Below are positions 27,069 through 46,327 of a stretch of 64,000 bases of DNA, in pieces (position 1 is the first letter of the stretch; each line of letters starts with the position of its first letter). The position numbers and the translations under genes are program-made. Source of the DNA: an uncultured Candidatus Saccharibacteria bacterium. GTDB taxonomy: Bacteria > Patescibacteriota > JABMPQ01 > JAQVVF01. The stretch lies in NCBI GenBank assembly GCA_964574655.1, contig CAZNOH010000002.1:29620-93619 (forward strand), written 5' to 3'. The notes beneath the pieces are model-generated. The model ran no database searches, was not told the DNA's origin, and worked only from the letters and a program-made list of their open reading frames with translations.

Positions 27069-27076
27069 TTCACAGT

Positions 27077-30406: not shown

Positions 30407-30408
30407 AA

Positions 30409-30493
30409 TTAATAACTAAATAACTAAATTCAAAATAACAAAATTATCGTTGATAAATTTAGTTATTTAGCATTTTGTTATTTAGTTATTTTT
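30409..30493. repeat. tRNA-associated hairpin element, second copy
   Basis: aataactaaataactaaattcaaaataacaaaatt-atcgttgat-aaatttagttatttagcattttgttatttagttattt. Confidence 0.6.
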
Positions 30494-30497
30494 AAAT

Positions 30498-30568
30498 GCG
30501 GGTATCGTATACCGGTATTACCTCAGCTTTCCAAGCTGATGAAAGGAGTTCAATTCTCCTTACCCGCT
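30498..30568 (+). tRNA. tRNA-Gly(TCC)
   Basis: Acceptor stem GCGGGTA/TACCCGC, anticodon arm TCAGC-TTTCCAA-GCTGA. Confidence 0.7.
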
Positions 30569-30735: not shown

Positions 30736-32469
30736 ATGAACCTAACAAGAGAACAACTTATTCAAATTCTAGTTGCAACAAAAATAATAGACGAAGCTAG
30801 ATTAGATGAGCTAATTAACCTCGCTAAAAAGGAAAATCAAAAAATAGAAAACGTGCTTGCTAGCGAAGGCATTATAGAAGAAAATGATTTATCGCAAAAA
30901 TATGCTGAAACTATTGGCGTTCCTTTTGTTGATCTAACAAAAGTTTCCATTAGAAAAGATCTATTGTTCCAAATTCCTGAAATAATCGCAAAAGCCAGCA
31001 ATGTTATTATCTTTGACGAAACAGATGAAGGAATAAAGATTGCCATGGTTGATCCAGAAGATCTGCAAACAATTGAATTCATTAAAAAGCAACTTCCTGG
31101 TAAAAGACTGCAAGTCCACCTTGCTACAAAGAAAGGAATGCTTTCCGTTTTAAAACAATACAAAAAAGGCTTACAGGCAGAATTTAATGAAATCATTGAT
31201 CAAAGTCTAGCAGCAACAAAAACCTCAGAAAAAGATTTGAAAAAAATGGCAGCTAATCTTCCAATAGTTAGAATCGTTGATACCTTGCTTGAACATGCTG
31301 TTTTGCAAAATGCTAGCGATGTGCATATTGAGCCTCTAGAAAAAAAAGCAATTGTTCGCTATAGAATTGATGGAATCCTACATGACGTTATTGTTCTGCC
31401 AAAAGAAATTATGCCTGGCATTGTTGCTAGAATAAAAATCATTACCGATTTGAAAATAGATGAACATAGATTGCCACAAGACGGACGTTTCAAAATAGAA
31501 AAAGAAGGTTACAAATTTTCTTTTCGTGTGTCCATACTGCCCATTTTTGATGGCGAAAAAATAGTCATGCGTTTATTATCAGAGACATCAGAAGTTCTGA
31601 CATTAGAACAGCTCGGCTTACAGCACGAAGCATTGGAAAAAGTAAAACTAAACATTCAGAAACCTTATGGCATGGTTCTGATCACTGGCCCAACAGGTTC
31701 AGGTAAAACAACAACACTCTATGCCATCATGGGAATTCTGAATACACCAGAAGTAAACATTTCCACAATTGAAGATCCGGTCGAATATAGAATGCCAAGA
31801 ATCAGCCAAAGCCAAGTAAAACCAAAGATTGGCTTCACTTTCAGCAACGGATTACGCGCACTTCTTCGTCAAGATCCGGACATTATCATGGTTGGTGAAA
31901 TTCGCGATAGCGAAACAGCAGGAATGGCGATTCATTCTGCTTTAACTGGCCATCTAGTATTATCAACACTTCATACAAATGATGCATCAAGCGCTCCTAC
32001 AAGACTTATTGATATGGGCGCAAAACCATTTTTAGTTACATCAACTTTAAATGTAGTTATCGCACAGCGCTTGGTTAGAAAAATTTGTACAAATTGCATG
32101 GAAAAATACAAGCTTGATAAGACAATGATTAATCTCTTAAAAAAGGAATTTGGCATTGAGCATCTTATGGAAGCACTAGTAAAAAGCAAGATTATGACAA
32201 ATCCAAAGCCAATTGAAGAAATTGAATTTTCCAGAGGCAAAGGTTGCGATCAATGTAATCAAGAGGGATCAAAAGGCAGAATTGGTATTTATGAAGTTTT
32301 TGAAACCTCGCCAAAAATTAATGAACTCGTGCTAGCCGACGCGCCAAGCGGAAAAATCAGCAAACAAGCTCAAGATGAAGGAATGCTGACAATGGCGCAA
32401 GATGGTTTTGTTAAAGCAGTTACTGGAATTACGACAATTGATGAAATTCTCAAGGTTACCAAAGATTAG
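30736..32469 (+). CDS. pilB: type IV pilus assembly ATPase PilB (GspE family)
   Basis: T2SSE_N-like N-terminal domain, Walker A GPTGSGKTT, a C-terminal tetracysteine CTNC...CDQC. Start placed at MNLTREQ. Confidence 0.9.
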   Translation: MNLTREQLIQILVATKIIDEARLDELINLAKKENQKIENVLASEGIIEENDLSQKYAETIGVPFVDLTKVSIRKDLLFQIPEIIAKASNVIIFDETDEGIKIAMVDPEDLQTIEFIKKQLPGKRLQVHLATKKGMLSVLKQYKKGLQAEFNEIIDQSLAATKTSEKDLKKMAANLPIVRIVDTLLEHAVLQNASDVHIEPLEKKAIVRYRIDGILHDVIVLPKEIMPGIVARIKIITDLKIDEHRLPQDGRFKIEKEGYKFSFRVSILPIFDGEKIVMRLLSETSEVLTLEQLGLQHEALEKVKLNIQKPYGMVLITGPTGSGKTTTLYAIMGILNTPEVNISTIEDPVEYRMPRISQSQVKPKIGFTFSNGLRALLRQDPDIIMVGEIRDSETAGMAIHSALTGHLVLSTLHTNDASSAPTRLIDMGAKPFLVTSTLNVVIAQRLVRKICTNCMEKYKLDKTMINLLKKEFGIEHLMEALVKSKIMTNPKPIEEIEFSRGKGCDQCNQEGSKGRIGIYEVFETSPKINELVLADAPSGKISKQAQDEGMLTMAQDGFVKAVTGITTIDEILKVTKD

Positions 32470-32550
32470 CGCGATGATAATTTAATATCCGAATATCTTA
32501 ATATCGGTAATATCTTTATTCATAAAGATATTCGGATATTAGGATATTAA
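32470..32550. repeat. orphan palindromic hairpin of the AATATCCG family between pilB and pilC
   Basis: aatatccgaatatcttaatatcggtaatatc...gatattcggatattaggatatt. Confidence 0.55.
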
Positions 32551-32564
32551 AATATTAAACTAGC

Positions 32565-33782
32565 ATGCCGAAATTTACTTATCTGGCTCGCGACAATCAA
32601 GGCAATATAAAAAGAGGCGAATTAACCGCGCCTAATGAAAAGTCATTAGCAAAGACATTGAGAAGCAAGGGCTTGCTTTTAACGCACGCTGAAAAAGAAG
32701 AAATCAAAAAGCATTTTTTCAGCAAAGACATGTCAGGCTTTCTAAGCAAAATAACTACAACTGACAAGATTCTTTTTACAAGAAACATGCAAGTAATGAT
32801 TAAAGCTGGTTTGCCAATTTCCAAATCACTAGAAATTCTTGTAAAACAAACCTCAAAAAAAAACTTCAAAAAAATAATTTCAGATATTTCTAGCAATGTT
32901 CAAAAAGGTAAAACATTAGCAGATAGTTTAGCAGTTTATCCAAAAATATTTCCACCCTTATTTGTTAACATGATCAAAGTCGGCGAAGTTGGTGGTGAAT
33001 TAGAAAAAGTCTTAGATCAGCTAGCTACTCAAATGAAAAAAGACAACGATCTTCTGTCTAACATCAAATCAGCAATGATTTATCCAGTCATTATTTTGCT
33101 TTTGATGATTGCAGTCGTGACAGTTATGATAATCTTTGTTTTACCTGAGTTGGCTAATGTTTTTAGAGATGTACAGGCTGATCTTCCTTTGCCTACTAGA
33201 ATACTCATCGGTTTTTCTGATTTTATTAGCAAATATGGAATTTACGTTGGAATCGCAATTATTGCTTTAGGCGTTCTGTTCTACATAATAATAAAAACTA
33301 AAGAAGGCCATAGAAGATTTCACAAAATACTGCTAGTCATCCCAGTTCTTGGCATTAACATTAAAAAAGTTAATCTAGCGCGTTTTGCAAGAACAACTAG
33401 CACTCTGCTTGTTAGTGGCGTTCCAATTGTTACAACATTAAATATTACCGGAGAGGTTTTAGGTAATTCAATATATCGTGAAGCAGTATATTCAGCAGGA
33501 GATGAAGTCAAAAAAGGTTTGCGCCTAGTTGAGGTACTAGAAAAAAACAAAAAATTATTTCCACCTCTTGTTACGCAAATGGTTGCGGTAGGAGAGGAAA
33601 CAGGCAGTTTAGATACTATTTTAAAGGATATTGCCGAATTTTATGAGGCAGATGTAACAAGAACAACTGAAAATTTGGCTTCAGTTATCGAGCCAATACT
33701 CATGATTACGCTAGGAATTGGTGTTGCTATTATGGCAATTGCCATTATTTCTCCAATATATTCGTTAATGGAAAAGATATAA
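32565..33782 (+). CDS. pilC: type IV pilus platform protein PilC (GspF family)
   Basis: Two GspF repeats and three TM segments, with a conserved MIKAGLPISKSLEIL segment. Confidence 0.85.
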   Translation: MPKFTYLARDNQGNIKRGELTAPNEKSLAKTLRSKGLLLTHAEKEEIKKHFFSKDMSGFLSKITTTDKILFTRNMQVMIKAGLPISKSLEILVKQTSKKNFKKIISDISSNVQKGKTLADSLAVYPKIFPPLFVNMIKVGEVGGELEKVLDQLATQMKKDNDLLSNIKSAMIYPVIILLLMIAVVTVMIIFVLPELANVFRDVQADLPLPTRILIGFSDFISKYGIYVGIAIIALGVLFYIIIKTKEGHRRFHKILLVIPVLGINIKKVNLARFARTTSTLLVSGVPIVTTLNITGEVLGNSIYREAVYSAGDEVKKGLRLVEVLEKNKKLFPPLVTQMVAVGEETGSLDTILKDIAEFYEADVTRTTENLASVIEPILMITLGIGVAIMAIAIISPIYSLMEKI

Positions 33783-33808
33783 TATTTAGTTTAAGATTAA
33801 ATATAAAA

Positions 33809-36154
33809 GTGCAAAAAAACAAAAAATTTGAAAAAGCCTTTACATTAGTAGAAACACTGATCGCCTTAGCCATACTAGCAATAGTGTCAGTAGGTATTTT
33901 TGGTATCTTCAAAGCTGTTAATAAGAGCGCTGGTATTTACGAAACTAGGACAGTTGCTACTGGTCTTGCAAATGCGCAAATGGAATTAATTAGAAATCTT
34001 CCTTATCTACAGGTTGGTACAACAGAGGGCTGGCCACAAGGCAACATTCCTTCAACTGCTGCTGCTAAAAACATTAACAATGTAAACTATATTGTTCATA
34101 CTGATATCCAATATGTTGACGACCCTTTTGATGAATTAGCACCTAATGATCCATATAATGCAGATTACAAAAAAGCTCGTGTTTGGGTAACATGGGATAA
34201 ATATCCTAGTGATCATCCAGTCGTTCTAGTCACAAATGTTGTTCCAAAAGGACAAGAATCTATAGAAAATGGTGGAACTCTGTCACTTCAAGTTTTTGAT
34301 AATGCAGTTGCCCCAGTATCACAAGTTTCAGTTCACATAGAAAATACTAATCTAATTCCAAATATTAATATCAACACACAAACAAATAATCAAGGCGAGC
34401 TAATTGTTCCAGCCTTGCCAATTGACACAGGCAACAACTACTATATAAGAGTAACAAAAACTGGTTACACTTCTGATTACACTGTTCCCATTACTCAACA
34501 AAATCCAAGTCCGACCTTGCCAAATCAGTCCATGCAACAAGGAACAATTACAGAAGTTAGCTTTACGATTGATCAAATCAGTCGTCTAACAATAAACGCT
34601 ACCGGCACAGAAGGTGGCGGCAGTTGGTGGGATGTTGGCTATCAATATCGCAAACAAGTAACCGTTCAAAATAACAATGTAAATATTTTGCCAGCTCATT
34701 CTTCAGTTGTCTTGAATCTTGACCATTATAGTCTAGTTCAAGCAGGTAAATCATTAAGCAATGGCAACGATATCAGAATTGTCTATTTTGATGGTTCAAG
34801 CTGGCATGATCTAGATAGAATAAATAGTACCTCCTGGAACCAAAATGGCACGCCAACAAAAATTTGGTTCGCGACACAGCAAGATATTGCTGGATCAGCA
34901 ACTTCAGATAGTTATTATTTATTTTACGACAATAGCGCTGCAATCAATCCAAGTACAAATCTTGCTTCTATATTTACTCCAGAAAGAGATAGTAATACAG
35001 CTGGACTATATTATTTTGAAAATTCAGAAGGAACAACAATAACTGATTCTTCTGGCAATAATAATGGCACTGTATCAAGCACAGCCTGGACAAGTGGCTT
35101 TAGCGGAAATTCATTGCTCTATAATTTGCCGACGTCATATTCAAAAGTTTCAGTTGCCGATGATTCTTCATTAGATATAGAAGGGCAGATAACATTGGAA
35201 GCATGGGTTAATCCAACCTCAATTGCTGGTAATCAATCCGTAATAGACCGTCTTAATAATTTTGCTTTATGGTTAGACAATGGCAAGCCTTCATTCGGTG
35301 TTTTTGACCAAGTTGCAGGCTTAAAAAGTATTCAAGCAATAGATACAATTCCTACTGATACTTGGACCTATATATCTGGCACTTATCTTCCAGGCAACAT
35401 GAAGGTTTTTATAAATGGTGAAGAAAAAAATTCAAAAAGCGAAACTGTAACTTATTTAACAGCAAATTCATCACCAATGTTTTTTGGCAATGGCGATAAT
35501 TTCGGCGAAAAATCATCTCAGTTTATCGGAAAAATTGATAGCGCCAAAATTTCCAATATAATCAGAGTCAATTTTCCATTTAGCAATATTCCAAATACTA
35601 ATTTATTGCTTGGCAATGAAGAAAGCGTTGTCACTGCTAATCCAGTTGCTGGTGTTAGCTTAAATATTGTTGGCGAAAGGCCACTTGGTCATGATGGAGA
35701 TGGAAATCCAATCATTAGAAACACATATCTAAATCAAGCAACAAATGCATCCGGCCAATTAATACTTTCAAATATTGAATGGGATAAATATACAATATCT
35801 TTAGCAGGTATAGGTTACGATCTAGCTGAGATCTCTCCTCCTAATCCAGTCAATGTTACACCTAATGAGAATCAAGTCGTAACCTTAGTTTTAGTTCCTC
35901 ATACTGATAACAGCTTAAGAGTTACAATTGTTGATAGCGCTAAAGAGCCAATCAACCAAGCCTTAGTTCATGTTACAGGCAACGGATTTGACCAAACAAA
36001 AACAACTGGCTCAGCAGGACAAGTATTCTTTAGCTCGTTATCTCAAGGTGCATATAATATAGAAGTCACAAAAACAGGATATGAAATATTAACTACTACT
36101 CAAGATGTTTCTGGCACAACAAGCCGTGAAATAATTTTAGCCCCACAACTTTAA
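33809..36154 (+). CDS. giant prepilin-like protein (781 aa) with CarbopepD-regulatory-like and LamG/ConA-like domains
   Basis: GTG start. Type IV pilin N-terminus KAFTLVETLIALAILAIV; a LamG-like block LEAWVNPTSIAG...KVFINGEEK; beta-sandwich repeats ending ...YNIEVTKTGYE. Confidence 0.7.
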   Translation: MQKNKKFEKAFTLVETLIALAILAIVSVGIFGIFKAVNKSAGIYETRTVATGLANAQMELIRNLPYLQVGTTEGWPQGNIPSTAAAKNINNVNYIVHTDIQYVDDPFDELAPNDPYNADYKKARVWVTWDKYPSDHPVVLVTNVVPKGQESIENGGTLSLQVFDNAVAPVSQVSVHIENTNLIPNININTQTNNQGELIVPALPIDTGNNYYIRVTKTGYTSDYTVPITQQNPSPTLPNQSMQQGTITEVSFTIDQISRLTINATGTEGGGSWWDVGYQYRKQVTVQNNNVNILPAHSSVVLNLDHYSLVQAGKSLSNGNDIRIVYFDGSSWHDLDRINSTSWNQNGTPTKIWFATQQDIAGSATSDSYYLFYDNSAAINPSTNLASIFTPERDSNTAGLYYFENSEGTTITDSSGNNNGTVSSTAWTSGFSGNSLLYNLPTSYSKVSVADDSSLDIEGQITLEAWVNPTSIAGNQSVIDRLNNFALWLDNGKPSFGVFDQVAGLKSIQAIDTIPTDTWTYISGTYLPGNMKVFINGEEKNSKSETVTYLTANSSPMFFGNGDNFGEKSSQFIGKIDSAKISNIIRVNFPFSNIPNTNLLLGNEESVVTANPVAGVSLNIVGERPLGHDGDGNPIIRNTYLNQATNASGQLILSNIEWDKYTISLAGIGYDLAEISPPNPVNVTPNENQVVTLVLVPHTDNSLRVTIVDSAKEPINQALVHVTGNGFDQTKTTGSAGQVFFSSLSQGAYNIEVTKTGYEILTTTQDVSGTTSREIILAPQL

Positions 36155-36159
36155 ACAAT

Positions 36160-36771
36160 ATGTTCAGAATATTTAAAAAAGAAAATGGTCTTACAGCTAT
36201 TGAACTAGTTATTACAATTGCAATTCTTGCGCTTGTTTCTGCAGCTCTCTATGGGTTTGTTACAATTTCCTTGAAAGCACAACAAAAAAGTTTTTCTGAA
36301 ATAAAAGCCGGAAATGAAGCCAGAAAGGCAATTCTCTCAATTGCCGATAATCTTCGTGATGCAATTCAGTCAGATTCAGGAAGCTACCCAATTCTAAGCG
36401 CAGGAAACCAAACAATTACATTTTTCACAAATATTGATCAAGACAGTGGAATTGAACGCGTTCGCTATTTTTTATCAGGAACAAATCTAAATATGGGAGT
36501 AATAGAACCTCAAGGAACACCAGTAACTTATCCAGCTGGCCAAGAACAAGTAAAGACAATTGCTCGCTATATGCAAAATGGAGCCAATCCAATCTTCTAC
36601 TATTATGATAAAAATTATACAGGCACAGAAGCAGCAATCAATCCAAGTAATGTCGGTGAAATCAGATTAATTAAAATAGTTGTTATCGTTGATGCAAATC
36701 CAAACAGCGATCCTCCTGCAACAACCATGGAAACAGAAGCACAATTACGTAATTTGAAAGACAATCTCTAA
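36160..36771 (+). CDS. prepilin-like (minor pilin/pseudopilin) protein
   Basis: N-terminal GLTAIELVITIAILALV class III signal. Confidence 0.65.
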   Translation: MFRIFKKENGLTAIELVITIAILALVSAALYGFVTISLKAQQKSFSEIKAGNEARKAILSIADNLRDAIQSDSGSYPILSAGNQTITFFTNIDQDSGIERVRYFLSGTNLNMGVIEPQGTPVTYPAGQEQVKTIARYMQNGANPIFYYYDKNYTGTEAAINPSNVGEIRLIKIVVIVDANPNSDPPATTMETEAQLRNLKDNL

Positions 36772-36943
36772 ACAAACTCTAAATTCTAAATACTAAACTC
36801 TTAATAAATCCAAAATCAAAATTATCAAAAAAATCTACATAAGCTTTTGGATATTTGAATTTTATCATTTGAATTTATTTAGGAGTTAAAAGCGACATTA
36901 GAAGCTTTTAACGAGTTTAGAATTTAGAATTTTTGAAAAAAAT

Positions 36944-38344
36944 ATGAATAATTCAACAAGATCTCAAAAGGGTGCAGCATTAATTGTAGTATTGGTTTTC
37001 ACAAGCATTTTTATGGTTGTGGCAATCGGTTTATTGCAATTAGTCGGTACCTTATACAAAACATCTGTAAAAAAACAAAGCTCTCTTCGCGCATTACAAA
37101 TTGCCGAAGCTGGAGTCAATTATTACAAATGGCGTCTTTCGCATTCTCCAAATGATTATTCAGGTTCAGGAGATTACAACTATACAGATCCTTATGGTGG
37201 AGTGATTGGCCGTTATAATTTACAGATTACTCCGCCAATAACTGGTTCAACAATTCTTACAATTACATCAACAGGTTATCTGAACGACGATCCAAATATC
37301 CACCGCACGATAGAAGTAAAATATGGAAAAAAATCTTTATCAGATTACACATTTTTTACTCATAGTAATGTTTGGTTTGGAGATGATGAAGAAGTAAAAG
37401 GCAAGATCCATTCAAATGGCGGAATCAGAATGGACGGCATTGGCGATTCAATAACAGAAAGTTCTCGAGAAAAATATATTTGCGGACCAGAGCATGGTTG
37501 CAATTATGTTGAACATGATGGAGTTTGGGGCACAGGAGAGATACAAGAGCTATGGCATTTCCCACCAGCCTATCAAGTTCCAACAATTGATTTTAATTCA
37601 CTTAGCGTTAATCTAGGCGGAGCTGGGGGATTAAAAGAAAAGGCGCAATCAGCAGACGGAGATTATATCGGCTATTCAGGCAGTTTTGGTTATCGCATCA
37701 AATTCAATGCCAATCCCGCAACTTATGATCTATATCGTGTTACAAGCACAAGGTCATCATATGGTTACGATCTTGCTGACGGCTGGAAATGGCGATACAT
37801 TGATATTCGCAACCAAACATATGTTGCTACATATCCAATTCCAGCAAATGGAATAATATTTGTTGAAGATCAAGTTTGGGTTGATGGAGATGTGCAAGGA
37901 CGAATTACGCTTGCTTCCGCAAATTTTTTGGCAACTGGCTCAGATCGTAGTATAATAATTAATGGAGATATCAATTATGTAGCAAAAGATGGTAATCATG
38001 TGCTAGGACTTATTGCTCAAAAAGATATTCTAGTCCCGCTTTATAGTCCAGAAAGGCTTGAAATCAATGCAGCGATGATCGCTCAAAAAGGACATGTTTT
38101 TTTGTATAACTACCAAGCCTCTCGTTATGGTGCAAGCTTAGTAGTAAAAGATTATATTGAAGTATATGGAAGTATCGGAACAAATAATATCTGGACCTGG
38201 TCATGGGTAAATTCACAAGGAACCGTAGTATCAGGCTATAAACAAACTGAAACCATCTTTGATAAGAATTTAACATACGCGCCTCCTCCAGATTTTCCAC
38301 ATAAAGAAGAATATGAACAAATCAGCTGGAAAGAAATACATTAG
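36944..38344 (+). CDS. prepilin-like protein (PilX-like, 466 aa)
   Basis: N-terminal GAALIVVLVFTSIFMVVAIGLL hydrophobic helix, then a large globular domain. Confidence 0.55.
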   Translation: MNNSTRSQKGAALIVVLVFTSIFMVVAIGLLQLVGTLYKTSVKKQSSLRALQIAEAGVNYYKWRLSHSPNDYSGSGDYNYTDPYGGVIGRYNLQITPPITGSTILTITSTGYLNDDPNIHRTIEVKYGKKSLSDYTFFTHSNVWFGDDEEVKGKIHSNGGIRMDGIGDSITESSREKYICGPEHGCNYVEHDGVWGTGEIQELWHFPPAYQVPTIDFNSLSVNLGGAGGLKEKAQSADGDYIGYSGSFGYRIKFNANPATYDLYRVTSTRSSYGYDLADGWKWRYIDIRNQTYVATYPIPANGIIFVEDQVWVDGDVQGRITLASANFLATGSDRSIIINGDINYVAKDGNHVLGLIAQKDILVPLYSPERLEINAAMIAQKGHVFLYNYQASRYGASLVVKDYIEVYGSIGTNNIWTWSWVNSQGTVVSGYKQTETIFDKNLTYAPPPDFPHKEEYEQISWKEIH

Positions 38345-38349
38345 TTAAT

Positions 38350-38488
38350 AATAGCTAATAATCAATAATCAATAATCAACGAATATCCAATATCCAATAA
38401 CTGAATAATCAATAAAGTGATCATCGTCGATTTGGTTATTAGAAGATTGGTTATTGATTATTCGTTGATTATTGGTTATTGATTATTC
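38350..38488. repeat. about 140-bp perfect-arm palindrome upstream of pilM
   Basis: aataatcaataatcaataatcaacgaatatcc...ggttattgattattcgttgattattggttattgattatt. Confidence 0.6.
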
Positions 38489-38496
38489 AAGAATTT

Positions 38497-39570
38497 ATGA
38501 GTAACTTTTTCACTCCTAAAAAACAAGCATTCGGTATAGAAATAAGCGATGCTTCAATAAAAGTTCTCCAACTGAAAAAAGGAGGCAAATTTTGTAAACT
38601 TCTAGGCTATAATATTTTAAAAATTCCTCAAGGATTAGTAGTCTCAGGTGAAATAAAAGACACGAATATACTTGCCACTCATATTCAAAGAGCTGTGCAA
38701 AATGCAAAGCCAAGAAGAATTTCAACCTCAAATGTGGTTTGCTCGCTTCCAGAAAACAAAACATTTGTCAGGATATTAGAAATTCCTCAGATGAGCAAAG
38801 AAGAGCTTAGCGAAGGAATTAAATGGCAAGCAGAGCAATATATACCATTGCCAATAGACACAGTTTATTTAGATTGGCAAATTATTGAAACAGTAGATAG
38901 CAAACAAAGAATTCTAGTTGCCGCTGCACCCAAAAAGCTTGTTGATGACTACATAAAAGCATTAAAAACAGCCAAGCTAAAGCCTTTAGTTTTGGATCTT
39001 GAAGAAGCTGCTGAAGCGCGTGCTTTGATTTCTGAAGATCAAAAAGAAGCAAGTCTGATAGTTGATATCGGCGCCACAAAAACAGTATTTATTGTTCATG
39101 ATCGAAAAATAGTTCCTTTTGCATCCAATACTCAAGAAGTTTGTGGAAATAAATTTACCGAAAATATTAGCAAAGCCTTAAAAATAAGAATTGAAGATGC
39201 AGAAGTTAAAAAAACAGCTTGTTGCAGTTCAGAGCTATCTTCCGAAGAAAAAGCATTGCTGCAATCAATTTATCCATTATTTGATTCTCTTGCTATTCAG
39301 ATAACCAAAATCATTAATTACTATCAAAATCATTTCAAATCTGCAAATCCTATCAGCAACATTATTTTGTGTGGTGGAGGCGCAGGGATATCTGGCATAG
39401 TTCCTCATTTAACATTAAAATTAAAAATGAAAATAGCTGTTGCTAATCCGCTTGCTAATTTATCAGTAAAAAAGAATTTACCAATAAATAAAAAAGACAT
39501 TTTAAGATTAACAACTGTTATTGGGCTTGGAATTAGAGGTTCAGAAATCATTGAATATAGTAAACTATAG
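38497..39570 (+). CDS. pilM: type IV pilus assembly protein PilM (actin-like ATPase fold)
   Basis: FGIEISDASIKVLQL N-terminus and a two-lobed actin-like length; start placed at MSNFF. Confidence 0.8.
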   Translation: MSNFFTPKKQAFGIEISDASIKVLQLKKGGKFCKLLGYNILKIPQGLVVSGEIKDTNILATHIQRAVQNAKPRRISTSNVVCSLPENKTFVRILEIPQMSKEELSEGIKWQAEQYIPLPIDTVYLDWQIIETVDSKQRILVAAAPKKLVDDYIKALKTAKLKPLVLDLEEAAEARALISEDQKEASLIVDIGATKTVFIVHDRKIVPFASNTQEVCGNKFTENISKALKIRIEDAEVKKTACCSSELSSEEKALLQSIYPLFDSLAIQITKIINYYQNHFKSANPISNIILCGGGAGISGIVPHLTLKLKMKIAVANPLANLSVKKNLPINKKDILRLTTVIGLGIRGSEIIEYSKL

Positions 39571-40103
39571 GATGATGCCAATCTACAAATCTTATGCCAA
39601 TTTACAAATTGCTAATATGTTAATGTCATGAATAATTTTACGAATTTGGTTTATCCAGAACTTTCGTATAAGATAACGGGTGTTTTATTTGATACTCATA
39701 ATAGTTTAGGAAGATTTTGTAACGAACAACAATATTCAGATTTTCTTGAGGACAATCTGAAGAAAATGAAAATAAAATATGAACGTGAAAAAATATTACC
39801 AAAATCTTTTGAAGAAGAACAAAAGGGACGAAACAGAATTGATTTTTTGATTGAAGACAAAATAATTTTAGAAATCAAAGCAAAAAGAATCGTTTTGAGA
39901 GAAGATTATTATCAAGTTAAAAGATATTTAATTGCCTTTAATAAAAAATTAGGCCTACTCGTAAATTTCAGAGACAAATATATTAGGCCAAAGCGTATTT
40001 TAAACTCCTCAGTAAAAGAGTATGAAAGTGTTAACAATCAGCAAATCGGCATAGCAAATTAGCAATTTGTAAATTGGCATAAAATTAGCGTATTGGCATC
40101 ATT
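39571..40103. mobile_element. cassette flanked by inverted repeats, carrying a GxxExxY gene and inserted between pilM and pilN
   Basis: The left arm at 39571-39619 (gatgatgccaatctacaaatcttatgccaatttacaaattgctaat) is the reverse complement of the right arm at 40050-40103 (attagcaatttgtaaattggcataaaattagcgtattggcatcatt). The left arm starts right after the pilM stop codon. Confidence 0.6.
39628..40062 (+). CDS. GxxExxY family protein (TIGR04256; IVS-associated)
   Basis: YPELSYKITGVLFDTHNSLG N-terminus and the downstream IDFLIEDKIILEIKA...LGLLVNF segment match the family pattern. Confidence 0.8.
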   Translation: MNNFTNLVYPELSYKITGVLFDTHNSLGRFCNEQQYSDFLEDNLKKMKIKYEREKILPKSFEEEQKGRNRIDFLIEDKIILEIKAKRIVLREDYYQVKRYLIAFNKKLGLLVNFRDKYIRPKRILNSSVKEYESVNNQQIGIAN

Positions 40104-40117
40104 AAATCCAAACGTCC

Positions 40118-40669
40118 ATGATCACAATCAATCTATTATCATCTGAAGAAAAAAAGGATATTTCCTACGAAAGAAGCAATATCTCTCTTGTCGGTTCTTT
40201 TGTCATACTTGGCTTTGTCCTTATAATGCTTACTTTTGTGCTTTACACAATCAGCGACGTTCAGAAAGGCACTTTAAATGCAGTAGCTTCTGAAACAAAA
40301 AACATTGAAAAATTTCTCAATCAAGAAGGGAATGCACAAATTGAATCAAAGATAAAACAAATCAACAATTACTTAAGCACAATCAAGGCAATAGAAGAAG
40401 ATAGAACTGATTTTGCTAAAACACTTACAGAAATTGCTAACCAAACTATCACAGGCATCAGAATTTTTGACATTAAGCTAAACAAGACTGACAAAAACTT
40501 TGAAATTTCAGGCAATGCAGTTGCAAGAGATAATTTAGTGCAATTCACTAGCAATCTAGGAAAGACAGGCTATTTTGAAAGCATTGAATCTCCTCCATCA
40601 AACTTAATAAGCCCAACAGATATTAGCTTTAAAGTAACCGGCAAATTAACAGATAAAGCGTTAAAATGA
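40118..40669 (+). CDS. pilN: type IV pilus protein PilN
   Basis: N-terminal ITINLL motif followed by one TM segment and a coiled-coil region. Confidence 0.75.
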   Translation: MITINLLSSEEKKDISYERSNISLVGSFVILGFVLIMLTFVLYTISDVQKGTLNAVASETKNIEKFLNQEGNAQIESKIKQINNYLSTIKAIEEDRTDFAKTLTEIANQTITGIRIFDIKLNKTDKNFEISGNAVARDNLVQFTSNLGKTGYFESIESPPSNLISPTDISFKVTGKLTDKALK

Positions 40670-41355
40670 AGACTCTAAACAAAAATCAGAAATCATGGCT
40701 AACAATAGGCATCAGTCTAGGCATTGTTTTGATTTACGCAGGATTAGTTATTTATCCTCAAACATCAAATATCCTTGAGCTCAACAGCAAAATCTATAAA
40801 GAAAAAATTAGACAAGCTGAGCTAAAAATCCAAGAAAATGATATAAAGCAGGCAAAGGACAGAGAGAGCGATGTAGATATCATCTTGGATCAGCTCTCAA
40901 TTCACTTAACAACAAAAGACGATATTCTGAATTTTATTATTGAGCTTGAAAACATCGCAAAACAAACAAACAATACTCAGGAAATAAATATAGTAGAGCA
41001 GACAAATGCGCCTCAAGTCCAAAAAACAGAAAATGAAGAAAAGCCAAGCAACACGAATACTGGCACTAATTCATCGGCCACTGTTGATCAGGAGCAAGCT
41101 AGCACAGCAAAAGATTTCATTGAGGTTGAAGTTAAGCTTCAAGGCTCTTTTGAAGATTTAATCGCTTACCTTAGCGAACTAAAAAAAGCCACCATTCTAA
41201 CCGATGAAACTTCTCTTGAAAGCCAGTTAGCTGAGCTAGCATCAACGCAAACAAACAAGCAGCTTGTCCAAAATGAAACAGCGCCTCAAACAAGCGACCT
41301 TTCATCAACGCTCAAACTTAGAGTTTATATAAAAGATCAAAATGTCACAAAATAG
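40666..41355 (+). CDS. pilO: PilO-like pilus assembly protein
   Basis: N-terminal TM segment then coiled coil; 4-nt overlap with pilN; placed in the pilMNO order. Confidence 0.6.
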   Translation: MKTLNKNQKSWLTIGISLGIVLIYAGLVIYPQTSNILELNSKIYKEKIRQAELKIQENDIKQAKDRESDVDIILDQLSIHLTTKDDILNFIIELENIAKQTNNTQEINIVEQTNAPQVQKTENEEKPSNTNTGTNSSATVDQEQASTAKDFIEVEVKLQGSFEDLIAYLSELKKATILTDETSLESQLAELASTQTNKQLVQNETAPQTSDLSSTLKLRVYIKDQNVTK

Positions 41356-41626
41356 CCCCAAAACAAGCCAAAAAGTAACGAATTACTTCCAGAAGAATAA
41401 CAACAAAGCAATTATTCTTGGTGTTTTTGTTGTCTCATTTTGCTTCGTTATATTTGGATCTTGGGTTTATCTGGTAACCTTTCTAATGCCTAAAGAGCCA
41501 GTCCAAAGCGAGATAATGCAAAAACGCCTTAAAATCGATAGCAAGAAATACGAAGGCATTATGCAAAGCCTTGCGAATGACCAAGAATCAAAAGCCCTCT
41601 CTCCAAGCACCAATCCTTTTAAATAA
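41342..41626 (+). CDS. small single-TM protein (PilP-position gene?)
   Basis: Overlaps pilO by 14 nt; one TM segment. Confidence 0.4.
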   Translation: MSQNSPKTSQKVTNYFQKNNNKAIILGVFVVSFCFVIFGSWVYLVTFLMPKEPVQSEIMQKRLKIDSKKYEGIMQSLANDQESKALSPSTNPFK

Positions 41627-41789
41627 GCATTATTGTCTTATACAGTATGAAAACAGGCACTTTTTGATTATGGCTATTTCAAGCCAAAATGACCTAAAAA
41701 TGATAATTGCTAGTGTATAATTATGACTATTTTAAAACGTTGTGCGTATTCTGCCTTATAAGAGCCAAAAGAAGAATTCAAAAAAAGGC

Positions 41790-41856
41790 TTGACATGGTT
41801 TTTGGGCAGTATACAATACAAGTACAGCCGAACGTATATGATACCTTCGGTTTTTT
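41790..41856 (+). promoter_or_regulatory. promoter TTGACA-N16-TACAAT followed about 10 nt later by an intrinsic terminator (leader or small RNA)
   Basis: ttgacatggtttttgggcagtatacaat...ccgaacgtatatgataccttcggtttttt. It lies about 300 nt upstream of the LysM-CHAP gene. Confidence 0.5.
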
Positions 41857-42152
41857 AATCCCTAAAATTAACTTATCTAATCTAGCCTTTTTTAAAGGCT
41901 AGATGAACCTAAATTGACTGGATAGCGAAAGACGATCTGTTTACACTTGAACTGGTTACCAATCAATTTGCAAGGAATACATATAAGCCTATTACTAGGA
42001 CAAGAAAAATCTTTGTTCATCTAATACCCAATATCAAAATTGGGCTGAGCAAGATTTATAACAAGTTTACAAAAACAAAAGAAAAAATCCAAAAACATTT
42101 AAAAATATTAGAACCTTTAAAAAATATTGCTAAAAAATATAGCAAATTCTAT

Positions 42153-43268
42153 TTGCACGCTGCTGTCATTATTATTGCTATTACTGTTGCAACATTCAAT
42201 GTATTAGCAAAAGAAGAAACAGTAACAGTCAAAGACAGTAGCATTTTAGCTAACTTAGTATTCCCAGAACAACAAAAATACGAAATTGTTAAGAATGCTA
42301 ACAAAAAGCCAGCTAAGACTAATTACTTATCTATTATATCAATCGCTTCTGCTTCACCTACTGGTGGTGCAATGAATACAAGCAAAAATGCTGTTGGTGC
42401 AACTTCAATTGCAACATTAGCTAAAGCTACAAAAAGCTTGCCTATGTTCAATAGCGATACATTAGTTAAAAATAGTTCAGTTAAAACTATCAAAACTAAG
42501 ACTGAAACAGAAAAAAGAAATGAACCTTTCAAGTATTTCGTAAAAGATGGTGATACAATTACTAACATCGCTTACAATTTCGCTGTTGATCCAGCTACTA
42601 TATTAGTAGAAAACGATTTATATGCTGATGACATCATCAAGCCTGGTATGGAATTAACTATCCTTCCAGTTCCTGGAACTTCTAAAAAAGTAGAAGCTGG
42701 CGATACTTTGGATCAAATTGCTGCTGACTCTGAAGCTGATCTTGAAAAAATTATAAAATTCAACAAATTAGCTAAAGCAGACAGTATCAAAGAAGGTCAA
42801 ATCTTAATTATTCCTGATGGAAAACGTTCTATTCAGGAAAGACCTATTCCAACTCCAGAAGAACAAGAAACATTAATTGCTACTTACAACGAAACAAACG
42901 ATACACAATACGAAACACCAAGCGTATATCAATCTCCAGTTGTTCATATTCAAGGTAGAGTTGCAAACAACTTTCCTTGGGGACAATGTACTTGGTATGT
43001 TGCTGAAAAACGCGGAGACGTTACATGGAATGGTAATGCCCGTGAATGGTTATGGAATGCCCAAGCTCAAGGTAGAGCAACAGGTAGAATTCCAGCCGTA
43101 GGCGCAATCATGGTTACAAACGAATCATGGTATGGCCACGTTACCTATGTAGAAGCTGTTAACGGTGACTCTGTCACTATCAGCGAAATGAACTTCGCAG
43201 GATTTGGTATTGAATCTACAAGAACAGTTTCAAATAGCAATGGTGTTATTCTAGGCTACATTTATTAA
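42153..43268 (+). CDS. LysM-LysM-CHAP peptidoglycan hydrolase
   Basis: Two LysM modules (DGDTITNIAYNF and AGDTLDQIAADS) and a C-terminal CHAP domain with Cys in GQCTWYVAEK and His in GHVTYVE. Confidence 0.8.
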   Translation: MHAAVIIIAITVATFNVLAKEETVTVKDSSILANLVFPEQQKYEIVKNANKKPAKTNYLSIISIASASPTGGAMNTSKNAVGATSIATLAKATKSLPMFNSDTLVKNSSVKTIKTKTETEKRNEPFKYFVKDGDTITNIAYNFAVDPATILVENDLYADDIIKPGMELTILPVPGTSKKVEAGDTLDQIAADSEADLEKIIKFNKLAKADSIKEGQILIIPDGKRSIQERPIPTPEEQETLIATYNETNDTQYETPSVYQSPVVHIQGRVANNFPWGQCTWYVAEKRGDVTWNGNAREWLWNAQAQGRATGRIPAVGAIMVTNESWYGHVTYVEAVNGDSVTISEMNFAGFGIESTRTVSNSNGVILGYIY

Positions 43269-43397
43269 AAAAGATATCCAGATAAAACCCCGGATTTTCC
43301 GGGGTTTTTGTTTTATTTAAAATGTGTTATATTATAATAAATTAAAGACGCGATTAATCGCGTCTTTACAAAAAATACTAAAAAATAAAATCAAAAC

Positions 43398-45167
43398 ATG
43401 TTCAAAAAAGCATCAATTATGGCAAGTGTTTTGTTATTAAGCTTTGTGCTAATAACAAATAATTCCTTAGCTGCTTTGAGTTGGGAAACTCAAGTAAGTG
43501 GAACAACGCATGAACTAAAAAGTATCTCAATTGCAACCAATAGCATCGGACTGGCTGGGGGATACAATTCATTAACTGGCGAAAGTGTATTAATAAGAAC
43601 AACAGATGCTGGTACTACATGGGAAAATGCTGGAACTACAATTTCATTTGGGGCAGGAATCTATGAAACAATGGACGTCAGTACCTATTTTAGTTCAAGC
43701 GAAAACAAAGTTTATGTAGCCGCAATATTTTCCCACAGCTCAGGAGGATATGGTCATGTTTTTAAAACAAATGACTTAGCTAATCTAAGTGGTGCATGGA
43801 CAAATACAAATATGGGGTTTGGAACTTACCAAACAAGCTCTGTCAAACAAATTGATCAAAATAATATCTATACCACTGGAAGCGATTCCGGATCTAGCGT
43901 TATAACAAAAAATGGGGCATTGCTTACAAATACTGATGCTTTGACCATCAAGCTAGTTGATATTGATTGTACTGACGAGAATCATTGCTGGGCAATTGGT
44001 TCAGGCGCTGTTGCTATTACTAGCAATGGCTCGACTTTCGATAGCGGGTATATCAGTGGTTTACCGATAGTTATTTCTGGTATTGATATGGTTAATAGCT
44101 CTCTTGGCTATATTGTCGGAAATAGCGGGACTATTTACAAGTGTTCAAGCAATAATTGTGCAAGCGAATCAGATTGGTCGCAAATGAGCAGTGGCTTGAC
44201 AGATAATCTACAAGGCATTAGTTGTATTAGCGCTGATACCTGCTGGACAGTCGGCAACTCTGGAGTTATCTATAAAACTACTAACGGTGGCACAAGTTGG
44301 TCATCCGAAACAAGCGGTACTATTTTAGCTCAATTAGATTCAACTGCACCAACAACAACAGCCTCACCAGCAGGAGGAGAATACGCTTCAGCTCAAACAG
44401 TTACTCTGACTGCAACAGATGAAGATTCAGGAGTTGACGCAACATATTATACAATCGATGGCTCAACACCAACCACTTCTTCAACAGTTTATTCATCACC
44501 AATCGCAATCTCAGCTACAACAACCCTCAAGTTTTTCTCAGTCGATAATGCTGGCAACAGCGAAAGTGTAAAAACAGAAAGCTATGTAATAAGCACAACG
44601 CCGACACCAACGCCATTCAACAAAAAAATCAATCTTGAAAACGCAGTTCTAGATACAACTTACCACAGCACAGAATCAAATACTGACCTTCTATTCTACA
44701 GGCTTCCAAAACAAGGAGTAATTACAGATCTTTATGTTAAGATCACTCGTAACAAAAAGAAATATAACTCAAATTTTAAGAAGAAATTGAGCTATCCAGG
44801 CTTTGTCACTCTCACATCAAATATTGGCAAAGTAGATAAAGACATTTACAGCAAAGTAAAAAAGCACATCAAATTCAAAGTTGCTATCCGTTATTCGCAG
44901 AACAAGATTAACAAGCTAAACCTAAAAGAAAAGAATCTAAGACTTTTCTACAAGAATCAAAATAATGTTTGGAAAGGACCATTCACTGTTTATCAGAACA
45001 AAGACAACAATGTCATCAAGTTCAAAATCAGAAACTATCTTCTCAAATCAAATACAACTAGCATGCTAGGAAACAGAACATTCTCTCCAGCATTCTACTT
45101 CCAAGACCTGACAAAGATTAAATTCATCGTTGCCGAAAAAAACGCCTTGATAGAACTCAATAACTAG
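43398..45167 (+). CDS. secreted BNR/sialidase-like repeat protein with a chitobiase/hexosaminidase-C-like Ig domain
   Basis: Signal peptide, repeated TTDAGTTW and TTNGGTSW motifs, and PAGGEY...TLTATDEDSGVDATYYTIDGSTPT. Confidence 0.7.
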   Translation: MFKKASIMASVLLLSFVLITNNSLAALSWETQVSGTTHELKSISIATNSIGLAGGYNSLTGESVLIRTTDAGTTWENAGTTISFGAGIYETMDVSTYFSSSENKVYVAAIFSHSSGGYGHVFKTNDLANLSGAWTNTNMGFGTYQTSSVKQIDQNNIYTTGSDSGSSVITKNGALLTNTDALTIKLVDIDCTDENHCWAIGSGAVAITSNGSTFDSGYISGLPIVISGIDMVNSSLGYIVGNSGTIYKCSSNNCASESDWSQMSSGLTDNLQGISCISADTCWTVGNSGVIYKTTNGGTSWSSETSGTILAQLDSTAPTTTASPAGGEYASAQTVTLTATDEDSGVDATYYTIDGSTPTTSSTVYSSPIAISATTTLKFFSVDNAGNSESVKTESYVISTTPTPTPFNKKINLENAVLDTTYHSTESNTDLLFYRLPKQGVITDLYVKITRNKKKYNSNFKKKLSYPGFVTLTSNIGKVDKDIYSKVKKHIKFKVAIRYSQNKINKLNLKEKNLRLFYKNQNNVWKGPFTVYQNKDNNVIKFKIRNYLLKSNTTSMLGNRTFSPAFYFQDLTKIKFIVAEKNALIELNN

Positions 45168-45493
45168 TAGCAGTATAAGCTATTCGCAATCTAAAGCCCC
45201 TGGAAGAGGGGCTTTTTTGTGTTCAAAATTAAGCCACAGACAGGGATATATGTCAAATAGGCACTTTTCTAGGCAATATAGCAAAAGGCGTGTTCTAGCT
45301 TCAAATATTGAGTTTTTAAGGTATTGGACAGGTGTTATTTTATAATAATCAATAATGTATGCCAGAATCCCTTGACTGACAAATATCAATGGCTAGAGTG
45401 TATTTATTGTTTTTTTTAATAGCTAAAATAACAATGCTTTGCTTCATTTAAGCCTAAGCATGTAATATTTAAGCCCTTTTTTCAGAAATAGCC

Positions 45494-45562
45494 TTGACAC
45501 TACTTGCTCAGATGTTAGTATGTAATGTTTTGAGGTAATCACGTATGGTACGTGATTTTTTG
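45494..45562 (+). promoter_or_regulatory. promoter TTGACA-N16-TAGTAT followed at once by an intrinsic terminator (second leader of the same type)
   Basis: ttgacactacttgctcagatgttagtat...atcacgtatggtacgtgattttttg. It lies about 125 nt upstream of the SLT gene. Confidence 0.5.
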
Positions 45563-45685
45563 TTCCAATAAAAACGTGCTTTGCGCTTAGAAATATTGGC
45601 TTATGAAAGCCATATTATTGAGCATAAAGCATACGAAATGCTGACTAAATAGCAATATTTGTTAGCATGAGTTGCTTTCAATTAA

Positions 45686-46327
45686 TTGAAGAAATATTTA
45701 ACTTTAGTCGCTGCTGTTGCCTTTTTGACAATGGCACTATTCCCAAATATATCTAATGCTAAAATTGACAATGATAAATTGTCAAAAGCTAATATGCTAG
45801 AGAATAGATTAAATAAAAAAATTGAATTTAATGCTGAATTAGGCATTAATAAAGAAAAAATTGAAAAGAATAAAGCTAAGAAATCAGCTAAATTAGCTGC
45901 TGCTAAAGAAAACGCTGAAAAAGTTCAGAAAGATCTTGAGCTAGCTAAGACTCCTGATACCACTGGCTTTGACAACATTTATAAAGCTGCTGGTGAAAAA
46001 TATGAAGTGCCATGGCAAATTTTGTCTGGTGTTCACTTGATAGAAACACGTAGATCTGGTGATACTTCTATTGCATCTTATGCTGGTGCGCAAGGACCAA
46101 TGCAGTTCATTCCATCAACTTGGGCTATGTATGGTGTTGATGGTGACGGTGATGGTAATGCTAATATTCATGATTCTGATGACGCCATTTATTCTGCTGC
46201 TAACTATTTGTCTGCCTCTGGTGCAAGCAATGGCGATATATATAACGCTTTATTTGCTTATAACCACGCTGACTGGTATGTAAACCAAGTTTTGGATAAT
46301 GCTAGAGCTGTTGGTTATAATGCCTAA
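45686..46327 (+). CDS. SLT-domain lytic transglycosylase (MltB-like), secreted
   Basis: Signal peptide and the GAQGPMQFIPSTW motif. Confidence 0.8.
   Translation: MKKYLTLVAAVAFLTMALFPNISNAKIDNDKLSKANMLENRLNKKIEFNAELGINKEKIEKNKAKKSAKLAAAKENAEKVQKDLELAKTPDTTGFDNIYKAAGEKYEVPWQILSGVHLIETRRSGDTSIASYAGAQGPMQFIPSTWAMYGVDGDGDGNANIHDSDDAIYSAANYLSASGASNGDIYNALFAYNHADWYVNQVLDNARAVGYNA

Follow-up and report, generated by a model that had tools for sequence, protein, structure and literature searches.

We read positions 30736-41626 of the window (the whole 64-kb stretch of DNA that was analysed) as a Patescibacteria core operon for a monoderm-type, type IVa-like pilus, in which a trio of pilin-like proteins would form a lectin-bearing tip. 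We assign this full account a probability of roughly 0.7. The operon lies on the plus strand, as do all genes described below unless noted otherwise, and encodes PilB, PilC, pilin-like proteins of 781, 203 and 466 aa, PilM, PilN, a PilO-like protein and a 94-aa membrane protein. A hairpin search found no strong terminator-like hairpin from pilB to the 94-aa gene. A first-pass annotation had described a type IV pilus cluster in a likely CPR organism, followed by hydrolases and comM. Every gene that it listed is present where it was placed, with significant family matches, and all related loci carry the titles Patescibacteria, Kuenenbacteria or Saccharibacteria, in agreement with the proposed organism.

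The assembly machinery is that of a type IVa pilus. The PilB-type assembly ATPase (30736-32469) matches T2SSE at 5.5e-126 (420.6 bits) and carries the N-terminal MshEN domain (2.6e-12); its ATG at 30736 gives a protein of 577 aa, the same as the homologues in L002, L008 and L013. The PilC platform protein (32565-33782; 405 aa) consists of two T2SSF repeats (3.2e-57, 192.3 bits), and both the T2SSE and the T2SSF scores are far above the cut-offs. PilM, the actin-like alignment protein (38479-39570), covers the whole PilM_2 profile (3.3e-47, 161.5 bits). The assignments of PilN and PilO rest mainly on position, with HMM scores under the cut-offs. PilN (40118-40669; 183 aa) scores 19.6 bits against a Pfam cut-off of 22.8 and begins with MITINLL followed by one transmembrane segment; its place directly after pilM is kept in all related loci. 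The PilO-like protein (40666-41355; 229 aa), whose gene overlaps pilN by 4 nt, has a weak T2SSM_b/GspM match, an N-terminal transmembrane segment and a conserved position after pilN. The final gene of the operon (41342-41626), which overlaps the end of pilO by 14 nt, encodes a single-pass membrane protein of 94 aa with no family match in Pfam. A gene for 77-99 aa occupies the same place in L008, L010, L011, L013 and L015; this conserved protein had been missed in the first-pass annotation.

The pilus genes stand in the order proposed earlier, pilM-pilN-pilO included, but an inserted gene between pilM and pilN had been overlooked. This insertion (39572-40102) is no part of the pilus machine. 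It consists of a GxxExxY PD-(D/E)XK gene of 144 aa (39628-40062; PDDEXK_3 6.5e-24, TIGR04256 1.1e-22) inside 51-nt inverted repeats (39572-39622 and 40052-40102) that are 86% complementary. The GxxExxY gene was not found between pilM and pilN in L003, L004, L006, L008, L010-L013 or L015.

The gene order itself is widely shared. The series pilB-pilC, a modular pilin of 440-798 aa, a protein of ~200 aa, a protein of ~460 aa and pilM-N-O is common to L002, L003, L004, L006, L007, L008, L010, L011, L012, L013 and L015, each compared as far as its contig reaches. In L007, a Saccharibacteria contig, the order pilB-pilC-[445 aa]-[191 aa]-[PilX-like] is found at 30-46% identity to the window proteins. 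The operon probably corresponds to the essential T4P-1 or "locus one" of Saccharibacteria, which belong to the same phylum-level lineage. T4P-1 of Nanosynbacter lyticus TM7x and Southlakia epibionticum likewise comprises pilB, pilC, pilM, pilN, pilO and minor pilins of the PilV, PilW and PilX types (PMC12206443, PMC10633639); the equivalence to PilV1, PilW1 and PilX1 of TM7x is drawn from gene order in L007 rather than from TM7x sequences. The locus-one pilins pilA1, pilV1 and pilW1 proved impossible to delete in TM7x, where T4P-1 has been linked to twitching (PMC12206443), and the T4P genes of Southlakia are class I essential (PMC10633639). Two differences stand out. TM7x locus one also contains pilT, pilD and the major pilin gene pilA1, whereas the window contains none of the three, and the pilin at the PilV position is about 445 aa in Saccharibacteria but 781 aa in the window, where it holds a DUF2341-like and LamG cassette.

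This 781-aa protein (33809-36154) is a genuine modular minor prepilin, as had been proposed, with LamG and beta-sandwich domains. Its leader of 10 residues, MQKNKKFEKA|FTLVE, has Ala at -1 and Glu at +5, and the glutamate (E15) is invariant among 26 homologues. N_methyl (1.6e-6) and TIGR02532 are above the cut-offs, with further matches to Laminin_G_3 (1.2e-19, residues 443-583) and CarboxypepD_reg (1.2e-14). The AF2 model (pLDDT 90.7) shows the pilin fold, a long N-terminal alpha-helix (13-62) against an antiparallel beta-sheet (87-144), followed by five beta domains including LamG: a beta-sandwich (155-266), a cassette (263-611) with a DUF2341-like part (280-373) and LamG (~397-590), a second beta-sandwich (597-697) and CarboxypepD_reg (702-776). 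The protein is a pilin module fused to a module of the ConA/LamG superfamily. Homologues of 440 aa bracket the cassette boundaries exactly, and the architecture is that of a conserved pilin and transthyretin-like beta-sandwich scaffold of about 440 aa into which the 349-residue cassette is inserted. The site is one of two insertion hot spots, and other subfamilies hold different inserts there or at the second site. Across this family, divergence is faster in the distal domains (54-57% mean identity) than in the pilin head (72%). A TafC family fimbrial protein of haloarchaeal Tat-fimbriae was considered and rejected; the likeness is at the domain level only, with 42 bits against a cut-off of 410 and a match limited to the LamG region (401-583).

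The other two pilins of the trio follow. The 203-aa minor prepilin (36160-36771), whose start codon lies 5 nt past the 781-aa stop, has the 10-residue leader MFRIFKKENG|LTAIE with Gly at -1 and Glu at +5 (N_methyl 7.2e-6; TIGR02532 above cut-off), and a homologue of ~190-250 aa holds this position in all related loci. Class III prepilin N-termini had been claimed for all three proteins. The claim stands for the 781-aa protein (KA|FTLVE) and the 203-aa protein; the 466-aa protein (36944-38344; PilX_N 8.5e-5, 22.9 bits against a cut-off of 25.5) has the signal KG|AALIV, with a 10-residue leader, Gly at -1 and the other class III features but without Glu5. This is a family-wide trait, as the glycine is kept and position +5 is hydrophobic in 44/44 aligned homologues, and it is a hallmark of GspK/PilX-type cap subunits, no failure of the signal. 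Glu5-less K-type subunits are known to cap tip complexes (PMC9934059), and for PilX1 of T4P-1 it is reported that no PilD signal peptide is predicted (PMC12206443, PMC10633639).

The fold of the 466-aa protein also places it in the cap class. A bulky ice-binding-protein-like beta-solenoid is inserted in a GspK-like pilin fold, and the closest structures are the tip pilins ComZ, GspK, XcpX and Streptococcus sanguinis PilA. The best match, Thermus thermophilus ComZ (PDB 6qvi, PMC6561018), shares the architecture of pilin fold plus solenoid but is not a predicted PilD substrate, in contrast to the CPR cap family with its invariant Gly-1. The family is further set apart from ComZ and the cyanobacterial PilX beta-solenoid pilins (bioRxiv 10.64898/2026.02.12.705559) by its own invariant motifs, W-x-G-x2-E-x3-G-x2-HSNGG-x-R-x-DG, Y-x-C-x5-C and PPP-x-FP. 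No sequence homology of the window pilins to GspK is detectable, and the GspK-GspI-GspJ and FimU-PilV-PilW-PilX tip complexes have four subunits as opposed to three in the window.

The closest tested analogue of the 781-aa protein is PilC of S. sanguinis, a modular lectin pilin with glycan-binding activity that belongs to a tip complex (PMC9934059). Both proteins belong to monoderm type IV pili and join a short pilin module to beta-sandwich module(s) and a lectin module of the ConA/LamG superfamily. In S. sanguinis, Ig-like and ConA-like lectin modules are present in PilC, which is part of the PilA-PilB-PilC tip complex (PMC9934059); as in the window, three minor pilins are proposed as the tip complex and one partner lacks Glu5. 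However, the lectin of PilC is at the C-terminal end, whereas the window cassette interrupts a longer stalk, with beta-sandwich domains on either side, and the Glu5-less partner is the small PilA in one case and a large solenoid pilin in the other. No sequence homology between PilC and the 781-aa protein is detectable, and PilC is absent among the fold matches listed. A tip-adhesin role, for which PilC is an experimentally tested analogue, is reasonable for the 781-aa protein because its best fold matches are carbohydrate-binding LamG/CBM-type domains. As LamG folds are found in enzymes too and can also bind proteins, the ligand class of the cassette is not fixed.

The filament could instead be primarily a DNA-uptake (competence) pilus, compatible with adhesion, in which the beta-solenoid cap would receive DNA, the role proposed for Thermus ComZ, and ComM would act in the same pathway. 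The modelled architecture of the cap provides an unexpected lead for this idea that is independent of comM. The cap pilin is 44-55% identical across lineages, unusually conserved for a pilin and about level with PilB and PilC; Saccharibacteria are naturally competent, with com genes conserved across CPR phyla (PMC10633639), and one cyanobacterial PilX-solenoid subfamily is competence-specific (bioRxiv 10.64898/2026.02.12.705559). We nevertheless consider it rather unlikely as the primary function. Even at E<=10, the 466-aa protein shows no sequence match to ComZ, and there is no homology from which the ComZ lysines could be transferred. The solenoid architecture is also found in cyanobacterial motility and EPS pili and has been proposed as a generic tip plug (bioRxiv 10.64898/2026.02.12.705559). 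In Southlakia, comEC is dispensable while the T4P genes are essential, so DNA uptake is not what makes the pilus essential (PMC10633639). Finally, comM adjoins the operon in close relatives only.

The genes further downstream were earlier regarded as the pilus's own wall-remodelling enzymes plus comM. They encode a LysM-LysM-CHAP peptidoglycan hydrolase (42153-43268; LysM 1.1e-16, CHAP 1.2e-16), a secreted Ycf48/BNR-like surface protein of 589 aa (43398-45167; PSII_BNR 2.3e-8, CHB_HEX_C_1 3.1e-21, Fn3_assoc), an SLT lytic transglycosylase (45686-46327; SLT_2 1.6e-15, SLT 1.8e-9) and, on the minus strand, a ComM/YifB Mg-chelatase-like AAA ATPase (47320-48849). The last has three Pfam domains, namely the ChlI N-domain, the Mg-chelatase AAA+ domain (5.9e-95) and the C-terminal domain, and exceeds the TIGR00368 equivalog cut-off (615.4 bits against 362.4). 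One functional module, in which the hydrolases would open the cell's own wall for the pilus or attack the host wall at contact, might be expected from the shared strand of the pilus, LysM-CHAP, BNR and SLT genes within 5 kb, and from N-terminal hydrophobic, signal-like segments in all three downstream proteins. The run from LysM-CHAP to ComM is also whole in L013 and retained up to the locus end in L008, but both are about 84-88% identical, and such retention is what ordinary synteny would give. No such neighbourhood follows the operon in L015, L010, L011, L012 or L006, and loci of 30-55% identity have unrelated downstream genes, such as YceG, ribosomal protein L27, or RecX with PilT. The LysM-CHAP gene is a separate transcription unit, divided from the pilus genes by 526 nt in which a near-consensus promoter-like site lies (TTGACA-16-TACAAT at 41790), and strong terminator-like hairpins follow each gene (43284 after LysM-CHAP, 45193 after the 589-aa gene and a bidirectional one at 46379 after SLT). 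A common module is quite improbable, and the hydrolases, BNR protein and comM are only adjacent to the pilus genes and do not belong to the machine.

As had been noted before, the 64-kb window lacks a major pilin, PilD and PilT; motif and Pfam scans agree. The six-frame motif scan found two Glu5 class III signals only, those of the 781-aa and 203-aa proteins, and in the other large ORFs the Pfam scans detected neither Peptidase_A24 nor a second T2SSE (PilT) nor a secretin. The window alone therefore does not suffice to demonstrate a complete machine. A type II secretion-like pseudopilus that exports proteins with no extended pilus would account for the GspK-like trio and for the lack of a major pilin and PilT, and it would suit the weak N-terminal matches to GspI, GspJ and GspK models, the GspK fold match of the 466-aa protein and homologues called "pseudopilin PulG" by some sources, but it is very improbable, as every Gsp score is far under its cut-off, the PilM_2 match is strong (PilM/N/O are type IVa pilus parts, as opposed to GspL/M of type II secretion), no secretin or GspC/D/L was found in the window, a PilT-size T2SSE gene lies just downstream in L010, and the probably corresponding TM7x locus produces visible filaments and has been tied to twitching.

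In the type IVa-like pilus that we favor, PilB would power assembly on the PilC platform, while PilM, PilN, PilO and the small membrane protein would keep the machine together. A PilD encoded elsewhere would cleave the prepilins, probably including all three. The Glu5-less 466-aa pilin would enter first, its beta-solenoid capping the filament, with the Glu5-bearing 203-aa and 781-aa pilins stacked under it, and a major pilin encoded elsewhere would polymerize below this priming complex, which finally would reside at the pilus tip. There, the lectin-like module most likely binds glycan on the surface of a host or partner cell, and a PilT encoded elsewhere would then retract the pilus and draw the cell towards its target. 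The pilus locus is no new system but a genuine, informative variant of a Patescibacteria (CPR) machine that is already known, and its trio of minor pilins, judged by likeness to known tip complexes, most likely presents a lineage-specific lectin module.

Ten closely packed genes occupy positions 30736-41626 on the plus strand of the window, which is AT-rich (GC about 34%) and also carries housekeeping genes (ftsH, gyrA, ribosomal protein genes and 13 tRNA genes). In order, they encode PilB (T2SSE, 5.5e-126), PilC (T2SSF, 3.2e-57), a 781-residue pilin (33809-36154; N_methyl, two or three CarboxypepD_reg-type domains and Laminin_G_3 at 1.2e-19), a 203-residue pilin (36160-36771; N_methyl), a 466-residue pilin (36944-38344; PilX_N slightly under the cut-off), PilM (PilM_2, 3.3e-47), a 144-residue PDDEXK_3/GxxExxY protein, PilN (weak HMM match, N-terminus MITINLL), a PilO-like protein and a 94-residue membrane protein. 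Downstream lie genes for a LysM-LysM-CHAP protein, a 589-residue protein with Ycf48/BNR-like and CHB_HEX_C_1 domains (43398-45167), an SLT transglycosylase and, on the minus strand, ComM/YifB. The first-pass annotation described this cluster correctly, and all of the families that it named were found; the PD-(D/E)XK gene and the 94-residue gene are additions to its list. No Peptidase_A24, second T2SSE ATPase or secretin was found in any large ORF of the window. The machine is of a known kind, the monoderm T4aP-like pilus of CPR bacteria. Elsewhere in the window, the region at about 22000-26000, between tRNA genes, has a GC content of 0.40-0.45 versus about 0.33 in the rest. Its ORFs, including those of 499 residues (24142-25641) and 238 residues (23073-23789), have no Pfam match, and the region could be foreign DNA. 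An adjacent pair of paralogous DUF3352 genes (546 and 539 residues) lies on the minus strand at 56856-60134.

All three pilin-like proteins have a basic, 10-residue leader, and all had been credited with class III N-termini. This holds for the 781-residue protein (KA|FTLVE) and the 203-residue protein (NG|LTAIE), but the 466-residue protein (KG|AALIV) lacks Glu5. A six-frame motif scan of the 64 kb found only two class III signals of the Glu5 type. Homologues of the large pilin have Gly or Ala at -1 and an invariant Glu5 (26 aligned). In the 466-residue family, Gly-1 is invariant and position +5 is hydrophobic in 44 of 44 aligned homologues. Such Glu5-less N-termini are characteristic of the K/PilX-type subunits with which minor-pilin tip complexes are capped (PMC9934059; bioRxiv 10.64898/2026.02.12.705559).

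The 466-residue protein belongs to a very large family without Pfam annotation. More than 1300 matches were found among word-indexed candidates, most of them 44-55% identical across their full length, and an exhaustive search of representatives returned 3488 clusters at E<=1e-3, 1273 at 1e-10 and 416 at 1e-30. Its AF2 model (pLDDT 90.3, pTM 0.82) has an N-terminal helix of 60 residues, followed by four long strands, many consecutive short ones and, last, another long strand at residues 453-465. The structural matches were T. thermophilus ComZ (score 16.4, 292 residues aligned), ice-binding proteins (13-14.5), GspK (10.6), S. sanguinis PilA (9.9) and XcpX (8.7). ComZ was described as a GspK-like pilin with a beta-solenoid resembling ice-binding proteins; it was shown to bind DNA, and its authors argue for a tip location (PMC6561018). 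According to a 2026 preprint, all cyanobacterial PilX proteins share the solenoid architecture, and a tip-plug role was proposed for them there (bioRxiv 10.64898/2026.02.12.705559). Since the profile of the 466-residue protein matched no PDB chain by sequence even at E<=10, its relation to ComZ is architectural. The idea of a solenoid cap is shared with ComZ and cyanobacterial PilX, but here it concerns a large Patescibacteria family, and the literature searched made no mention of this architecture together with Patescibacteria. Three motifs are invariant in the family: W144-x-G-x2-E149-x3-G-x2-H156-S-N-G-G-x-R162-x-D164-G, Y178-x-C180-x5-C186 with two invariant cysteines, and PPP-x-FP near the C-terminus. 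HSNGG-x-R-x-DG and the two cysteines could be the mark of a conserved site for binding or catalysis, with DNA or a wall polymer as the ligand or substrate. RTX-like calcium binding by the GG-x3-DG motif was considered and rejected, since its spacing is not that of the nonapeptide. Some family members carry large insertions and reach 618-1445 residues.

The 781-residue protein is a modular stalk pilin. A homology search found 84 relatives. LamG is borne by 13 of these, which have 780-789 residues and an identity of at least 44%, and is missing from about 65 Patescibacteria proteins of roughly 440 or 560-616 residues. Alignment and pairwise BLAST identified a shared scaffold: the 440-residue forms match the window protein over residues ~10-262 and ~612-778. 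The two halves are split by a 349-residue insertion, the cassette (residues 263-611). In other subfamilies this site holds either a different insert of about 130 residues or a long one rich in repeats; still others have an insert of about 160-300 residues at a second site within the C-terminal domain. An AlphaFold prediction, proposed earlier as a check on the protein, was run and gave a confident model (pLDDT 90.7) with a pilin helix and sheet followed by beta domains that include LamG. The model comprises a helix (13-62), a four-stranded pilin sheet (87-144), a beta-sandwich (155-266), a DUF2341-like beta domain (280-373), LamG (~397-590), a second beta-sandwich (597-697) and CarboxypepD_reg (702-776). 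The 280-373 domain is called DUF2341-like on the basis of weak PF10102 matches in two of the 13 members and a match of 5.3e-19 at the equivalent position of a Kuenenbacteria homologue. The entire cassette is collinear with homologues of 798 residues (33% identity) and 762 residues (28.5%) in Kerfeld- and Kuenenbacteria-type loci; elsewhere, other domains are found. Structure searches returned only binding domains of the LamG/ConA type, namely those of clostridial neurotoxin Hc, sialic-acid CBM40, pentraxins and neurexin LNS domains; 4dqa and 5hon are the PDB matches at the sequence level. Membership of TafC was rejected (42 bits versus a cut-off of 410). Mean identity among the 13 close homologues falls from 72% in the pilin head and 67% in the first sandwich to 54-57% in the cassette and distal domains, a gradient expected if the base has conserved partners to contact while the ligands that the distal part encounters vary. 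The S. sanguinis PilC is likewise a lectin-bearing minor pilin. However, the 781-residue protein is unrelated to it in sequence and differs in construction, its cassette occupying one of two insertion hot spots in a conserved stalk of several sandwiches. The family appears to be a modular scaffold with swappable cassettes predicted to bind surfaces.

The minor-pilin trio is common to all Patescibacteria loci examined, as seen from the window and its relatives. A profile scan of contigs with a 13-sequence alignment of relatives of the 781-residue protein yielded six loci. As far as each contig runs, 11 related loci, including Kuenenbacteria, a Kerfeldbacteria-type contig and an uncultured Saccharibacterium, share the order pilB, pilC, a pilin of 440-798 residues, one of ~190-250, one of ~450-615, pilM, pilN, pilO and sometimes a small gene. 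Compared with L003, a locus whose relatedness is at the 47% level, the window proteins are 57% (PilB), 54% (466-residue pilin), 49% (PilC), 47% (781-residue pilin), 41% (203-residue pilin), 40% (PilM), 40% (PilN) and 26% (PilO) identical; the cap pilin is therefore close to the motor proteins in its degree of conservation. The 203-residue protein had only chance-level sequence matches in the PDB. On the 1.05-Mb contig of L010, an additional 723-residue protein without a Pfam match (5639-7810) lies between pilC and the 440-residue stalk pilin, and RecX and a PilT-size T2SSE ATPase lie directly downstream of the operon (13981-15561). The recA/recX genes also occur in TM7x pilus locus two.

The GxxExxY gene (39628-40062) is framed by 51-nt inverted repeats (39572-39622 and 40052-40102) that are 86% complementary. 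The arms are built on copies of ATGCCAATyTACAAAT, two on the left and one exact copy on the right; three of the four occurrences of this 16-mer in the window fall within the arms, versus 0.38 expected by chance. In all relatives examined, pilM directly precedes pilN without this gene, the spacer being only about 80 nt with a different hairpin. By this comparison, a small element bounded by a stem seems to have been inserted recently into the pilus operon. Its long stem could be an RNA-processing site.

The first-pass annotation had also tied the pilus to wall-remodelling enzymes of its own and to comM. This link is tempting, and it was dropped as unsupported. The LysM-CHAP/BNR/SLT/ComM neighbourhood is restricted to close relatives (complete in L013, and up to the locus end in L008, an 84% relative). 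The operon is followed by YceG and isoprenoid genes in L015, by ribosomal protein L27 in L011 and by unrelated genes in L012 and L006. Consensus scans, which are not proof, found strong terminator-like hairpins directly 3' of the LysM-CHAP gene (43284), the BNR protein gene (45193) and the SLT gene (46379) and a TTGACA-16-TACAAT site inside the 526-nt gap after the 94-residue gene; no comparable hairpin was found from pilB through that gene. Together with synteny, these sites speak against membership of the hydrolases and comM in the pilus module, leaving them as neighbours. The BNR/CHB_HEX_C_1 protein has 589 residues in the window, 630 in L013 and at least 1171 in L008 (19469-22352), where it has many CHB_HEX_C_1/Fn3_assoc repeats, so its repeat number changes fast among close relatives.

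Upstream, a near-identical tRNA-Pro(CGG) occurs twice (26912-27148 and 30335-30568), each copy followed by a similar AT-rich spacer of about 90 nt with internal inverted repeats and then by a differing tRNA (Ala or Gly). The pair flanks a 3.2-kb segment with Wzy_C and lipoprotein genes immediately upstream of pilB, an arrangement that may have arisen by segmental duplication or may mark an old site of integration. A gene of the Wzy_C (O-antigen-ligase) family adjoins the pilus operon in the window (27246-28616), L002, L008 and L013; L011 has PMT_2 and Glycos_transf_4 there (1927-3714, 511-1566), and L012 has Glycos_transf_4 (3817-4866). These matches, all to generic domains, make a connection with TfpO/PglL-type O-glycosylation of pilins possible; the Wzy_C gene of the window, which matched only the generic domain and, below threshold, IctB, is a lead for such a pilin O-glycosyltransferase.

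At 781 and 466 residues, neither large pilin could plausibly fit in the filament shaft. The same steric argument was made for ComZ (PMC6561018) and for S. sanguinis PilB and PilC (PMC9934059). Analogy with the HIJK and PilABC tip complexes suggests that assembly starts with the solenoid pilin lacking Glu5, which would cap the fibre, continues with the two Glu5 pilins and ends with polymerisation below them of a major pilin encoded elsewhere. The tip would then display the solenoid and a stalk of transthyretin-like sandwiches carrying the lectin-like LamG cassette. In cultivated Saccharibacteria, T4P genes are essential, including pilins of locus one, the probable counterpart of the window operon (PMC12206443, PMC10633639). 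This locus, T4P-1, is linked to twitching in TM7x (PMC12206443), and T4P essentiality is independent of comEC (PMC10633639). On these grounds, adhesion and motility with a lineage-specific ligand module rank first as the most likely function. DNA capture by the cap pilin, a function compatible with adhesion, ranks second. A T2SS-like pseudopilus is unlikely, since PilM/N/O are present, Gsp-specific parts are absent and filaments were seen in TM7x (PMC12206443).

We tentatively propose, at a probability of roughly 0.3, that the Patescibacteria pilus tip consists of a phylum-wide, unusually conserved beta-solenoid cap and a stalk pilin with interchangeable binding cassettes at two hot spots. The operon bears on the question of how ultrasmall CPR bacteria reach their hosts and keep hold of them, and the probably corresponding Saccharibacteria locus is essential by genetics. 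The trio provides concrete candidates for tests of host recognition and DNA binding. If the cassettes set which host surface can be grabbed, the host range of uncultured CPR bacteria could be readable from the stalk-pilin gene.
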